From Escherichia phage WPEC5: a stretch of 64,000 nt of DNA. Every line of letters starts with the position of its first letter. Position 1 is the first letter of the stretch. This document shows positions 57,646-60,388 of this stretch, one piece after another. The DNA is taken from sequence record PV654397.1. The stretch is one strand, 5' to 3'. The notes beneath the pieces were generated by a model. That model made no database searches. It was not told where the DNA came from and saw only the letters and a list, made by a program, of their open reading frames with translations. The translations under genes were made by a program, and so were the position numbers.

Positions 57646-59157
57646 TTATTTTTTATCCTTTCCAACACCACGGTCGTACTCTTTGAATGAGTTATCAAGT
57701 GTAGTTAGTGCATACTCATATGCTTCTGGTGATTCAATGTCAACATCATCTGCACCATTTACTAAATCAGCCCAAGCCTTTTGAAGTTTACGAGCATTGT
57801 TACCAACATTATCTTTAATCCAACTAATATTTTTGTTGATACTTTTACTATCAGCACCTGCTTTTTTACCAATCTCGGATATCCACATCATTAACTTTTG
57901 AAGTTCATGAATTGATTTATCAGTCATTTCAAGATGTTCTTCTTCCATACCGTCAGAATCAGATGAACCAACGTCAATTCCATGTTTAGCTAATAGTTTA
58001 CCAAGTTCAAAGAATGCAGCTTCAGCAGGGAAGTCATAACCTTTGTCTTTGTAGTTATTCCATGCACTATCAAACTCGTCAACAAAACGGTTAGCATAAT
58101 CTGGATTTTTAACTAATGCTTTATATACTGCCATTGCATGTTCAAAACCTTCTTTATCTGACCCAAACTCTTCCATCTCAGGACGATGAATGTACCCATC
58201 CATATCAACGGTATCAGGTAGATCTTCTTGCTCAGGCACAACATCTTTCTGTTCAACTGCACCTTCTTCATCTTTACGTAGTAGATATCCATCAGGTGTC
58301 ACTTTCTCACCATGTTCTGCTTCATACTTTTTCATAGTGTTGAATGCAGCATCCATAGCTGTTACGAAGCGACTTTTCTCACCTTGTACATAAGATTTAA
58401 GTGCACTGTTAACTGCATCTGATACGAGCTTAACCTTATCGTCTTTACCTTCTAAACGGTTTTCAAGTTTAGCCAGTACATTCTTGACTTGCTGGGCATT
58501 AGCACGGTCTGCTTTACCAATATTATCAAAAGTTTTAAGAATACCATCAAGACTTGCTTCACCCTGTTCAGGTTCTTTGGAATCTTCTTTGTGTGTACCT
58601 TCAAGTGCACGCATGATAGTACTGAATACTTCAGTAGGTTCAGTACTCTTATTACCTTTCATTGCATCAAGTACAGCTTGTGCTTTACCTTTGAGTTCTT
58701 CTTTAGGAACTGCCTGTAGTGCTTTGACAATACCCTGAATCAACTGTGGTTTGTTAGCAAAGATCTTACCTAAGTTATCAGATAACTCTTTAACAGGGTT
58801 AGCTGCTTTAGGAGCTTCTGGTTTTGGTTCTTCTTTAGGAACTGCTTGTTCTTTCTCAGCACGTTCCATATCAGCAAGGCGTTGTTTCTGTGTTGCGTTA
58901 AGAAGACCTAATGAGTTAACATAACGTAGCTTTTCTAGCTCAGTCATGTTCTCAGTACTCTTAACTTCACCTGCTTCTGCGTTTGCCTTACCAGCTAAAC
59001 CTGTCCCTTGATTACGTGAACCACGTGACCCCTGTCCTGCTTGGTAGCTATTTTGACGACGATTGCGTTCACTCCATTTATCAGAGTGACCTGCCATGTT
59101 CCCGCCATTTTTATCAGTAAATTGACCTGGCATTTGATTTCTCTCCATAGATTTCAT
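57646..59157 (-). CDS. large acidic hydrophilic protein (503 aa)
   Basis: Longest ORF in window; Lys/Glu/Asp-rich, no TM; N-terminal motifs shared with 60005-60388. Confidence 0.6.
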   Translation of the reverse strand: MKSMERNQMPGQFTDKNGGNMAGHSDKWSERNRRQNSYQAGQGSRGSRNQGTGLAGKANAEAGEVKSTENMTELEKLRYVNSLGLLNATQKQRLADMERAEKEQAVPKEEPKPEAPKAANPVKELSDNLGKIFANKPQLIQGIVKALQAVPKEELKGKAQAVLDAMKGNKSTEPTEVFSTIMRALEGTHKEDSKEPEQGEASLDGILKTFDNIGKADRANAQQVKNVLAKLENRLEGKDDKVKLVSDAVNSALKSYVQGEKSRFVTAMDAAFNTMKKYEAEHGEKVTPDGYLLRKDEEGAVEQKDVVPEQEDLPDTVDMDGYIHRPEMEEFGSDKEGFEHAMAVYKALVKNPDYANRFVDEFDSAWNNYKDKGYDFPAEAAFFELGKLLAKHGIDVGSSDSDGMEEEHLEMTDKSIHELQKLMMWISEIGKKAGADSKSINKNISWIKDNVGNNARKLQKAWADLVNGADDVDIESPEAYEYALTTLDNSFKEYDRGVGKDKK

Positions 59158-59169
59158 ATTGTTTATTCT

Positions 59170-59220
59170 CTATGACTATATTTATAGTATAAAGAAAAGG
59201 TTGACCGAAGTCAACCCTAT
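59170..59220 (-). promoter_or_regulatory. fused terminator/promoter module (type C)
   Basis: GGGTTGACTTCGGTCAACC hairpin, TTTTCTTTA, TACTAT. Confidence 0.5.
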
Positions 59221-59238
59221 TTTCACTGTACTATACCA

Positions 59239-59535
59239 TTAGTAGTTACAGTCAGCTTTCGCTGTGAATGTTTTACTTTCACCTCGTTGTGTGGTGATTC
59301 GTCCGAGTAAAGTAGTTTTGTCAATAGTCATTGTAGTTAGTACTGGAACATTACCTTCAAAGTCAATAGCTTTGAAATTGTAGGTGGTTTCATTCTCCAC
59401 TACACTTGGACCAAAGAGTTCATATGTGTTGATTTCAAGTGTGTCACCATCTGAACGCAACAGTGTACAGTCCAGATTAGGAGTAGCCAGTACTGGGAAA
59501 GCCAAACACATCATCATTACAATAATTAATTTCAT
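59239..59535 (-). CDS. putative secreted protein (98 aa)
   Basis: Signal-peptide-like MKLIIVMMMCLAFPVLA; overlaps upstream stop. Confidence 0.5.
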   Translation of the reverse strand: MKLIIVMMMCLAFPVLATPNLDCTLLRSDGDTLEINTYELFGPSVVENETTYNFKAIDFEGNVPVLTTMTIDKTTLLGRITTQRGESKTFTAKADCNY

Positions 59536-59795
59536 TTCACTTCTCCTGTTTTTTTCTTAGGATCAACCAATGACCAAATGAAGAATCCGAGAATTACAAG
59601 TACCCACAGAATCATGATAAAGAAAGCAAACAGTACAATAGTATTTGTCAAAAAGAAATACAATAGAATGTTCGACCCAATACTACATACAATCAATGCA
59701 GCTTCATGTTTAACAACACGAATGGCTGTAATGAGTGCGGGAAGAAATCCGACAAATAACAGTACTAATGCATATAGTGATAATGTTTCAGCCAT
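59532..59795 (-). CDS. small membrane protein (87 aa)
   Basis: Three hydrophobic segments. Confidence 0.5.
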   Translation of the reverse strand: MAETLSLYALVLLFVGFLPALITAIRVVKHEAALIVCSIGSNILLYFFLTNTIVLFAFFIMILWVLVILGFFIWSLVDPKKKTGEVK

Positions 59796-59803
59796 GATAT
59801 CCC

Positions 59804-59917
59804 TTATTTGGTTTGTTCAACACTAGGTGTATTGATATAGGTGTCAATTGAATAACATACTGTACCCACTACAACAGCAGCGATTAGGGCAGTGATGATG
59901 AATTTAGTACCTTGCAT
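59804..59917 (-). CDS. small membrane peptide (37 aa)
   Basis: Short ORF with GAGGT SD; one hydrophobic helix; hand-translated. Confidence 0.3.
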   Translation of the reverse strand: MQGTKFIITALIAAVVVGTVCYSIDTYINTPSVEQTK

Positions 59918-59949
59918 AATTTAATACCTCACGTTGTTTGTATTTTGTA

Positions 59950-60000
59950 TCACTTGATGAAAATATTATACGACAAAGGGCTGACTGAAGTCAACCCCTT
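59950..60000 (-). promoter_or_regulatory. fused terminator/promoter module (type C)
   Basis: GGGGTTGACTTCAGTCAGCCC hairpin, TATAAT, ATTTTCATCAAG. Confidence 0.5.
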
Positions 60001-60004
60001 TTAA

Positions 60005-60388
60005 TTATTTTTTAAACTTATGTTTTTCGCCTTCAATAGAGTTCACGATGTCATCATGAATCTTGCGAAGGTTATGAGTTTTCTTTAGTGCTTCATGTAG
60101 TGCACGGAATGCTGCGTGTACTGTTGCCTTGAAGTGCTCTTTAGGAGTCACTTTAAGTTTCTCAATGATATCACGTACATAAATTGGATGATCTTCAAAT
60201 ACACGATTCAATTCATGGCCTAGTGATTCTAGACTGAAAGCTTTTTCACGTGAAGGACGATCATGTGCAAGACTTTGGTCAGGCTTTAGTAGACCTAGTG
60301 AATCAAGATACTTATGCTTATGTGCATTATCAATTCCAGAAATATCCACATCATGCGATGGATCTTTCTTATTCCATTTATCAACCAT
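60005..60388 (-). CDS. hypothetical protein (127 aa), paralog of N-terminal part of 57646-59157
   Basis: Shared KYLDSLGLL and helical motif region; fused module downstream. Confidence 0.5.
   Translation of the reverse strand: MVDKWNKKDPSHDVDISGIDNAHKHKYLDSLGLLKPDQSLAHDRPSREKAFSLESLGHELNRVFEDHPIYVRDIIEKLKVTPKEHFKATVHAAFRALHEALKKTHNLRKIHDDIVNSIEGEKHKFKK

Follow-up and report, generated by a model that had tools for sequence, protein, structure and literature searches.

Two paralogous virion proteins of an Asteriusvirus jumbo phage: late promoters, modular architecture and a possible place inside the head

Embedded among small genes of early appearance that encode membrane and secreted proteins, the genome of Escherichia phage WPEC5 contains the putative transcription units of two related genes, and the question arises whether their products belong to the phage particle and at which place they act. 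The analysed stretch of 64,000 nucleotides (record PV654397.1), here called the window, is 99.5% identical to phage WPEC3 and originates from an Asteriusvirus, a jumbo coliphage of the 121Q/PBECO4/phAPEC6 group. An earlier note, made from the sequence of this DNA, had considered the products as virion-internal or ejected proteins or as scaffolds.

The two genes and their kinship

Both genes are located on the minus strand, in the ORFs 57646..59157 (503 aa) and 60005..60388 (127 aa). As previously noted, no complete ORF of the window is longer than the former; the next one in length has 396 aa. The true start of the large gene is most likely Met9 of this ORF (ATG 59133), which would result in a gene of 57646-59133 encoding 495 aa, because the relatives are annotated in this way and every distant ortholog begins with 'MP'.

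57646..59133, minus strand: gene of the large, probable virion protein, 495 aa, in an ORF open to ATG 59157 (PHROG 20398)
59141..59146, minus strand: Shine-Dalgarno sequence GGAGAG of the large gene, 7 nt 5' of ATG 59133
60005..60388, minus strand: gene of the small paralog, 127 aa, basic (PHROG 16530)
60395-60400, minus strand: Shine-Dalgarno sequence AAGGAG of the small gene

Orthologs of the large protein are 121Q gp201 (97% identity, with a gene neighbourhood that is conserved as well), phAPEC6 gp035c and RaK2 gp275; those of the small paralog are 121Q gp199, phAPEC6 gp037c and JP4_541. In the RaK2-like jumbo phages the pair is already known and annotated as 'virion structural protein' (PHROG 20398/16530).

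The large protein is indeed rich in Lys (11.1%), Glu (10.3%) and Asp (7.8%), possesses no Cys and has a GRAVY value of -0.89, a pI of 5.2 and a net charge of -17. The acidic character claimed for it does not extend to the small protein, which is basic (pI 9.05). A Kyte-Doolittle scan with a window of 19 residues peaks at 0.73 in the large protein and at -0.02 in the small one, in agreement with the stated absence of transmembrane segments, and the adjoining small ORFs reach 1.4-3.1 on the same scale, as fits the secreted and membrane neighbours that had been postulated. The helical prediction for the large protein agrees with an AF2 model, which is all-alpha (pLDDT 70.6, pTM 0.35).

The kinship of the two proteins, already suspected, is confirmed by BLASTP (E=5e-9, 26% identity between residues 75-187 of the large and 23-120 of the small protein) and by a Smith-Waterman score of 89, which was reached by none of 1000 shuffles (35.7+-5.3; z=10). 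Each protein matches its own PHROG (large, phrog_20398, E=2.4e-244; small, phrog_16530, E=7.7e-55) and also that of its partner (large against 16530, 4.9e-40; small against 20398, 1.9e-4). The two motif pairs quoted earlier in favour of this relationship had, however, been assigned to the wrong partners. A six-frame HMM scan of the window detects exactly these two members of the family. In the small paralog the SLGLL motif and domain A are preserved, and the basic tail at the N-terminus has been lost; a protein of 171 aa (P0081) forms the link between this paralog and the tailed short form. An internal repeat of the large protein, domain A against the rest, is suggestive (z=2.3, score reached by 30 of 1000 shuffles) and is not claimed here.

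The family is narrow. Searched with a profile, 1.84 billion representatives yielded 36 members and no relatives beyond the RaK2-like group; the long matches P0103 and P0107 consist of many short stretches only (E>1e-6), and the divergent tail-bearing member P0105 lies on a contig of 2.8 kb with uninformative context. A further member within the group is GAP32_032. Sequence searches of Pfam, NCBIfam and the PDB with both paralogs, the short forms and the family profile stayed at the level of noise. Foldseek with the AF2 model of the large protein found no PDB entry at E<1 and, in BFVD, the own family alone. The phiKp24 cryo-EM paper and a jumbo-phage review of 2026 are silent on this family, and the main text of the paper on 121Q (Hua 2017) mentions neither gp199 nor gp201.

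Presence in virions and late transcription

Orthologs of one or both proteins were detected by mass spectrometry (MS) in four published virion proteomes covering three genera. RaK2 gp275 was found in purified virions with 20 unique peptides (34% coverage), the second highest peptide count in the RaK2 proteome table. The phAPEC6 virions contain gp035c (8 peptides, 28.8%) as well as gp037c (5 peptides, 48%) (PMC7247149 Table 1), those of JP4 the large ortholog JP4_543 and the small ortholog JP4_541 (4 peptides, 29%), and those of CBB the short-form ortholog CBB_38 (9 peptides, 56.6%). The orthologs of 121Q-type phages are 97-99% identical. Both proteins of the window phage are very probably virion components. 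Absence from virions, which the earlier note had named as the observation that would speak against its proposal, was checked against these proteomes, and the orthologs are present in them; together with the late promoters of both genes, the detection in RaK2, phAPEC6, JP4 and CBB particles supports its guess of a virion protein. Few other virion-protein families have been conserved throughout the genera Asteriusvirus, Alcyoneusvirus, Mimasvirus and Eneladusvirus.

The phAPEC6 virion list also holds a ssDNA-binding protein and thymidylate synthase, so that sticky contaminants are possible in virion MS (PMC7247149). This bears on a different reading, in which the large protein would handle DNA in the cytoplasm, as a 'chromosome segregation / SMC-like' protein, and co-purify with virions. 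It would be in line with the contamination of the phAPEC6 lists by other DNA-metabolism proteins and with the phAPEC6 record, which calls gp035c 'chromosome segregation protein' on the basis of a weak similarity (E=0.039 in its note). However, Pfam and NCBIfam contain no SMC or ATPase match and no profile indicates Walker motifs; the longest predicted helix has about 20 residues, which would leave no room for long coiled-coil arms. Moreover, the virion detection is reproduced by four independent proteomes from three genera, and the large gene is preceded by a late promoter of the capsid-gene kind. The SMC annotation of gp035c was therefore rejected, as there is no profile match and the AF2 model consists of four short helical bundles, and a co-purifying cytoplasmic protein is highly improbable.

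The promoter and terminator candidates around the two genes are the following.

59179..59186, minus strand: T4-type late promoter TATAAATA of the large gene, 45 nt 5' of ATG 59133
59214..59186, minus strand: sigma-70-like promoter TTGACT-17-TATACT (10/12), overlapping the late promoter of the large gene
59197..59218, minus strand: hairpin terminator, GGTTGACTTCGGTCAACC plus T-run, predicted insulator between the large gene and its upstream neighbour
57614..57639, minus strand: hairpin terminator directly 3' of the large gene stop, an exact copy of the 18-nt core of the 59197..59218 hairpin
60421..60428, minus strand: T4-type late promoter TATAAATA of the small gene, 32 nt 5' of ATG 60388
60463..60492, minus strand: sigma-70-like promoter with extended -10, TTGGAA-18-TGATATAAT, upstream of the small gene's late promoter (consensus match only)
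59979..59996, minus strand: terminator hairpin core GGTTGACTTCAGTCAGCC after the small gene stop, then TATAAT for the next small gene

Judged from these elements, each gene appears to be a single-gene, insulated transcription unit with a T4-type late promoter. The motif TATAAATA is rare in the window (3 sites against 12.8+-3.7 expected), and all three sites lie on the correct strand, 27-45 nt 5' of the likely starts of virion-protein genes. The same is seen in phAPEC6: in its structural module (50 kb) six of six sites fall between genes and precede a gene start by 16-47 nt, the genes thus preceded including those of the major capsid protein and the scaffold, and the 7.2-kb locus of the paralogs contains just two sites, one before each paralog. 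The spacing between motif and start at the large gene equals that at the phAPEC6 major capsid gene. Furthermore, the CBB paper describes a gp55-like sigma factor as well as a late motif, ATAAATA. Late transcription of both genes is thus probable. Some early expression is possible because the Mimasvirus and Eneladusvirus orthologs have a perfect sigma-70 promoter and no exact TATAAATA upstream, and a 10/12 sigma-70-like site overlaps the late promoter here; the -35 hexamer of this site, TTGACT, is included in the stem of the 59197..59218 hairpin.

Late expression, helical structure and high charge are also features of scaffolding proteins. The paralogs could thus be scaffold-like or chaperone-like factors of core assembly, of which only remnants persist in the mature particle, and both the prohead protease and the true scaffold do show up at a low level in mature virions. 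But a gp22-like scaffold gene (phAPEC6 gp226c) already adjoins the capsid and protease genes in the head module, more than 100 kb away from the large ortholog gene in the phAPEC6 record. In mature phAPEC6 virions the large ortholog has a coverage of 28.8% vs 4.9% for the scaffold, and the RaK2 ortholog yields as many as 20 unique peptides. The scaffold sequence has many [LI]xE sites, the large protein just two, neither of them conserved: the first 400 residues contain none, and the sites at 408 and 418 are kept in 9 of 37 and 5 of 40 homologs, respectively. Persistence in mature particles, the separate gp22-like gene and the lack of conserved (L/I)xE protease sites make the scaffold guess of the earlier note, and an assembly factor in general, quite improbable. 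The motif 'A(L/I)EG' at the end of domain A was tried as a processing site of the phiKZ type (S/A/G-x-E) and dropped, because the short forms lack it and T4-type processing appears to be the rule in these phages; in their capsid protein, MLTE|S occurs at residue 43.

Architecture and possible place in the particle

The large protein is composed of a basic disordered tail, the EKLKYFNSLGLL motif, a four-helix bundle and variable acidic helical modules, all of them predicted (codons in Met9 numbering).

58948..59133, minus strand: N-terminal tail, codons 1-62, basic (pI ~9.8), G/S/N/Q/R-rich, AF2 pLDDT <50
58894..58947, minus strand: EKL(K/R)Y(F/V)NSLGLL motif, a short helix, codons 63-80
58597..58803, minus strand: domain A, four-helix bundle, codons 111-179, the region of homology with the 127-aa paralog (residues ~53-120 there)
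57985..58551, minus strand: variable acidic helical modules B and C, codons 195-383 (B 195-274, C 327-383)
57667..57921, minus strand: domain D, conserved, C-terminal and helical, codons 405-489

No other segment is as well conserved across the genera as the N-terminal tail. Long forms share 59% identity with short ones in the tail vs 29% in domain A, i.e. twice the conservation of the folded domain, and the tail pI of 9.7-11 differs from that of the acidic body of the long forms (4.5-5.0). In the adjacent motif K68, Y71, L75 and G76 are invariant; the counterpart of the small paralog reads KYLDSLGLL. The fold of domain A is a generic four-helix bundle. The module content varies: the window phage has the 495-aa architecture like 121Q, the 417-aa form of phAPEC6 and JP4 is missing module C, and the 606-aa form of JNE01 has an additional module of ~100 aa inserted after domain A. 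Domain D also exists as a stand-alone protein of 146 aa (P0095).

A rough label-free estimate from one JP4 data set, length-normalised, amounts to ~4-14 copies per virion for the large and ~40-145 for the small protein, which suggests a portal-like copy number of the large protein in JP4; with its 20 peptides, RaK2 gp275 is covered much better. The heads of 121Q and phAPEC6 contain internal protein, and bubblegrams of both phages revealed a phiKZ-like inner body. It is unlikely that the large protein is its main component, because a body of 91x18 nm would require ~340 copies of a 55-kDa protein.

The portal-like number would also fit a symmetric site with 6 or 12 copies. In an external or tail-associated position the proteins would be part of, for example, the neck, the sheath, the capsid decoration or the anchor of the hair-like fibres, or an accessory of the baseplate. 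Virion MS does not tell head and tail apart, phAPEC6 has several unassigned densities, among them a decoration protein of the capsid, an anchor of the fibres and decorations of the tail, and the family has a weak match to a PHROG 'tail protein' (E=0.0045). Against this, the phAPEC6 capsid decoration protein equals the major capsid protein in copies, far above the rough estimate for the family, the genes are distant from the structural module, and fold searches revealed no likeness to known tail, neck or decoration folds. The gain or loss of large modules within one genus (417, 495, 606 aa) would be unusual for a fixed lattice position, and the predicted disordered linkers, along with the pTM of 0.35, fit poorly to a rigid building block. 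An external or tail-associated component is therefore rather unlikely.

For the head-internal or ejected location a tentative case can be made, although it may well prove wrong. According to this model, the proteins would be made late and incorporated into the head as internal proteins of low to moderate copy number. The basic tail and the SLGLL helix may serve as conserved contact with the packaged DNA and/or a particle protein such as portal or capsid, domain A would mediate assembly, and the acidic helical modules could be exchangeable cargo or spacer. The small paralog might be a tail-less copy that arose by deletion from an ancestral form of ~170 aa and co-assembles through the common motif and domain A. 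As a whole, the description as non-enzymatic, all-helical particle proteins of RaK2-like jumbo phages with late synthesis and an internal head mechanism has a little less than an even chance of being right. Most of the 50-60 virion proteins of these phages (121Q, phAPEC6) are without known role, and the family is a reasonable candidate for internal-protein packaging or ejection in the clade because conservation is highest in a basic tail that is predicted to be disordered.

A more far-reaching version of the internal model, speculative and unlikely as it stands, is a delivery vehicle specific to the RaK2-like phages. Tail and SLGLL helix would dock on the DNA or the portal channel and exit with the genome, the rapidly exchanged acidic modules would be injected payloads that act on the host at the first moment of infection, e.g. 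as DNA mimics or anti-defence factors, and the small paralog, lacking the tail, would be packaged alongside as a partner.

Comparison with other internal proteins

The inner-body and ejection proteins of phiKZ and SPN3US (phiKZ gp89, gp90, gp93, gp95, gp97 and gp162) are, like this family, virion proteins of jumbo phages with unknown fold and with paralogs encoded close together. Neither profile nor fold searches detected similarity to the phiKZ inner-body proteins, as was also reported by the phAPEC6 authors. Some of the phiKZ proteins are injected with the DNA and are present in 100-200 copies each (2026 review), in contrast to the ~4-14 copies of the large protein roughly estimated from one JP4 data set. 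Unlike them, the family gives no sign of proteolytic processing at the sequence level.

The internal proteins IPI, IPII and IPIII of T4 and Alt are packaged via an N-terminal capsid-targeting sequence. The likeness to them would consist in late-made, non-structural head cargo, as proposed here, in the context of a T4-like head module (gp23-like capsid protein, gp21-like protease, gp55-like sigma factor), and the conserved N-terminal segment of the large protein could act as a comparable packaging or contact determinant. However, the large protein is acidic and greatly exceeds the T4 IPs in size, it has neither a short targeting peptide ending in (L/I)xE nor a conserved cleavage site, and the small paralog is present in virions even without the tail. 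Pfam and PHROG revealed no homology to IPI, IPII, IPIII or Alt.

The ejection proteins gp7, gp16 and gp20 of P22 and the core proteins gp14, gp15 and gp16 of T7 are low-copy, largely helical and unprocessed, and they exit with the DNA. Sequence or fold similarity to them was not detected, and unlike these proteins the family is without membrane-active or hydrophobic segments. In copy number they fall within a range similar to that roughly estimated for the large protein, and it is such ejection or core proteins, not a bulk constituent of the inner body, with which the two paralogs would be compared in the proposed model.

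The two genes and their products

Scanned with an HMM, the six-frame ORFs of the window include exactly two members of the family:

57646..59157, minus, large gene, ORF of 503 aa
60005..60388, minus, small paralog gene, ORF of 127 aa

As the earlier note had stated, 57646..59157 is the longest ORF of the window, among complete ORFs, and its product is hydrophilic, acidic and Lys/Glu/Asp-rich (GRAVY −0.89, pI 5.2, net charge −17; also rich in Ala, no Cys). TM-like segments were found neither in this protein nor in the small paralog, but the small ORFs beside them do have such segments. 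The proposed relationship between both products holds as well: BLASTP gives E=5e-9, the Smith-Waterman score is 89 (35.7±5.3 for 1000 shuffles, z=10) and the PHROG matches are reciprocal, so that on sequence grounds they are well supported as real paralogs. The earlier description has to be corrected in the strand (both genes are on the minus strand), the acidity of the small paralog, which is basic (pI 9.05), and the start of the large gene. The latter is likely Met9 (ATG 59133), since GGAGAG lies 7 nt before this ATG, relatives are annotated with this start and all distant orthologs begin with 'MP...'.

The 4-kb region around both genes is 99.2–99.5 % identical to Escherichia phages WPEC3, BF17, Turkey3, fEgEco12 and Ecwhy_1 and ~87 % to 121Q and PBECO4, which are Asteriusvirus jumbo myoviruses with genomes of ~350–385 kb belonging to the 'RaK2-like' phages. 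Both ORFs are labelled 'virion structural protein' in relatives (WPEC3 CDS143 and CDS147, 121Q gp201 and gp199). Between the paralogs lies an ORF of 38 aa with a single hydrophobic segment (59807-59920, minus; annotated as WPEC3 CDS146 and 121Q gp200), which has its own TATAAT after the small paralog terminator. By sequence and position, the orthologs in phAPEC6 are gp035c (417 aa, 46.4 kDa) and gp037c (127 aa, 14.8 kDa). The GenBank product name of gp035c (L003:3025-4278), 'chromosome segregation protein', goes back to a similarity that is very weak (note E=0.039) and is likely a propagated mis-annotation, because it is backed neither by any profile nor by the predicted structure; UniRef has the same name for the family relative P0019.

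Late promoters, terminators and neighbouring genes

Both genes are preceded by TATAAATA, which is the T4 late-promoter consensus, and the large gene has exact copies of the terminator hairpin core GGTTGACTTCGGTCAACC on both flanks:

59186..59179, minus, TATAAATA of the large gene, 45 nt to Met9
60428..60421, minus, TATAAATA of the small paralog gene, SD AAGGAG also present
26637, plus, TATAAATA of the first RCC1-like array gene (gene at 26672), 27 nt upstream of the gene
59218..59197, minus, hairpin terminator (GGTTGACTTCGGTCAACC and T-run) upstream of the large gene
57639..57614, minus, second exact hairpin copy, directly after the large gene stop codon
11016, 48249, 50044, 51917, 52640, 56936, 57618, 59199, 59979, 63573, minus, copies of GGTTGACTTCGGTCAACC

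TATAAATA is rarer than chance in the window (3 observed vs 12.8±3.7 expected) and 3/3 copies lie upstream of genes with virion-detected orthologs, namely the two paralogs and the first RCC1-like array gene; this scarcity and placement suggest selection against stray late promoters. The structural module of phAPEC6 (50 kb) served as an independent check, and there 6/6 copies lie between genes, in coding-strand orientation, 16–47 nt upstream of starts. The spacing is 47 nt for the scaffold gene and 45 nt for the major capsid gene, the latter being equal to that of the large gene. In the phAPEC6 paralog locus (7.2 kb) just two sites exist, one preceding each paralog. Furthermore, RaK2-like phages have a gene for a gp55-like late sigma factor, and in phAPEC6 gp237c carries the label of late sigma. 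An ATAAATA motif is reported upstream of CBB and GAP32 structural genes. From the positions and scarcity of TATAAATA, the phAPEC6 pattern and the late sigma factor we conclude that both genes are putative late-transcribed islands within a block of small membrane/secreted-protein genes; as a prediction from sequence, their late transcription is well supported.

A terminator hairpin also follows the stop codon of the small paralog gene. With up to 3 mismatches the window contains 10 copies of GGTTGACTTCGGTCAACC, all on the minus strand (0.02 expected by chance). Each is a predicted terminator-like stem-loop with a TTGACT −35 hexamer inside the stem, and several have TATAAT 17–18 nt further on, forming a predicted terminator/promoter cassette between small genes. 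Sites resembling sigma-70 promoters overlap TATAAATA of both genes or lie before it, and the Mimasvirus and Eneladusvirus orthologs CBB_38, GAP32_032, Serratia BF gp027, Yen9-03 g017 and XbC2_23 (loci L005:3880-4003, L006, L007, L008, L009) have a perfect TTGACA-17-TATAAT within a hairpin upstream and no exact TATAAATA there. Extra early expression of both genes is therefore possible. In these orthologs the element lies inside a conserved inverted repeat, CCCCTAA...TTAGGGG, which finishes in a T-run immediately ahead of the start codon. Its 3' arm is also the ribosome-binding site (RBS), so that read-through transcripts would be terminated or RBS-masked and promoter-initiated transcripts would not.

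Across the window, minus-strand small genes are followed by the plus-strand RCC1-like array and again by minus-strand small genes (switches at ~22000 and ~44000), with matching sign flips of the GC skew at ~22 kb and ~44 kb. The tandem array (26672-44893, plus) comprises ~15 paralogous genes for G/S/T/N-rich, RCC1 beta-propeller-like proteins of ~375–395 aa; its counterparts are the phAPEC6 'DNA condensation / RCC1' proteins, several of them MS-detected in virions, and a tandem array in 121Q. In region 55150-56185 three adjoining minus-strand ORFs of ~112–122 aa (55150..55518, 55496..55843, 55847..56185), each with multiple hydrophobic segments and with similar C-terminal endings (…LRDKMPNR, …LRDNLPER, …WRNKIPEK), resemble a small membrane protein that was triplicated in tandem.

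Domain architecture and evolution of the family

The domain layout of the large protein (Met9 numbering) is based on cross-genus alignments and an AF2 model (pLDDT 70.6, pTM 0.35):

residues 1-62, basic tail, G/S/N/Q/R-rich, pLDDT <50
residues 63-80, EKLKYFNSLGLL helix; K68, Y71, L75 and G76 invariant
between EKLKYFNSLGLL helix and domain A, P/E/K-rich linker
residues 111-179, domain A, four-helix bundle
residues 195-274, module B
residues 327-383, module C
residues 405-489, domain D, conserved, C-terminal

No helix of the model is longer than ~20 residues, and thus an extended coiled coil is absent. In all forms the tail is basic (pI 9.7–11), and the remainder of the long forms is acidic (pI 4.5–5.0). 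Identity between long forms and the short forms, which end with domain A, is 59 % in the tail, 64 % in the EKLKYFNSLGLL motif and 29 % in domain A; the predicted-disordered tail is the best-conserved part, unusually so.

Among 1.84 billion clusters this very small family has just 36 representatives. Mimasvirus and Eneladusvirus possess only a ~155–172-aa protein consisting of tail, motif and domain A, and these short forms are the best match of the 127-aa small paralog. An intermediate state in the relative P0081 (171 aa) indicates that the small paralog would have arisen by deletion of residues ~1–16 and the Gly-rich segment. Module content changes by gain and loss even inside Asteriusvirus, where the large protein has 417 aa in phAPEC6 and JP4, 495 aa in the window phage and 121Q, and 606 aa in JNE01. 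Domain A is duplicated in the relative P0097, and P0095 consists of domain D alone.

Presence in virions and proposed location

The earlier interpretation as virion-internal or ejected proteins, or scaffolds, was partly correct: the assignment to the virion stands, a scaffold role is unlikely. Orthologs were found by MS in particles of four phages. ESI-MS/MS of the phAPEC6 structural proteome identified gp035c (8 peptides, 28.8 % coverage) and gp037c (5 peptides, 48 %) (PMC7247149 Table 1). The RaK2 ortholog of the large protein, ORF275 (565 aa), gave 20 unique peptides and 34.3 % coverage, and only the tail sheath was higher there (PMC3622015 Table S3). The short form CBB_38 (172 aa) gave 9 peptides and 56.6 % (PMC5259590 Table 4), and the JP4 LC-MS/MS list includes the large and small orthologs JP4_543 and JP4_541 (PMC12648861 supplement 2). 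Both proteins could instead be contaminants of virion preparations; packaging of both products into particles is well supported.

A cut of the phAPEC6 capsid protein at MLTE|S (residue 43) would take off ~4.9 kDa, which fits the reported change of the 121Q capsid protein from 42.2 to 37 kDa, so that the protease probably uses the T4 (L/I)xE rule. Only two such sites occur in the large protein, neither of them conserved, and nothing points to a cleavable targeting peptide or to scaffold-like degradation. Among internal, ejected and scaffold roles the last is the least compatible with these data; a role as assembly factors is a rival reading for both proteins.

Copy numbers were estimated from length-normalised JP4 label-free abundances, with capsid protein (1620 copies), sheath (150) and portal (12) as calibrators. 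Per virion ~4–14 large and ~40–145 small proteins result, from one shallow data set with a possible order-of-magnitude error. Peptide counts of large protein and portal are similar in phAPEC6 (8 and 9; PMC7247149), whereas in RaK2 the ortholog is far higher (20 vs 7; PMC3622015). The phAPEC6 inner body (91×18 nm) amounts to ~19 MDa, for which ~340 copies of a 55-kDa protein would be needed. In view of the rough ~4–14 copies, it is unlikely that the large protein makes up most of this structure in Asteriusvirus.

That both proteins would sit in the head interior and leave it together with the DNA is an inference, drawn because they are hydrophilic, non-enzymatic and modular, their conserved basic tail resembles a DNA or partner contact, their genes are distant from the lattice-forming structural genes, and the heads of 121Q and phAPEC6 contain unassigned internal protein. 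The rival to this head-internal location is an external or tail accessory.

The additions made here are descriptive and comprise a correction of the start codon, the late-promoter/terminator cassette, the domain map, the unusual conservation of a tail predicted to be disordered, the descent of the small paralog through deletion and a rough copy-number case against a bulk inner-body role. The virion status of both proteins is already part of the literature and of database annotation, and in close relatives the pair has been both annotated and detected by experiment.
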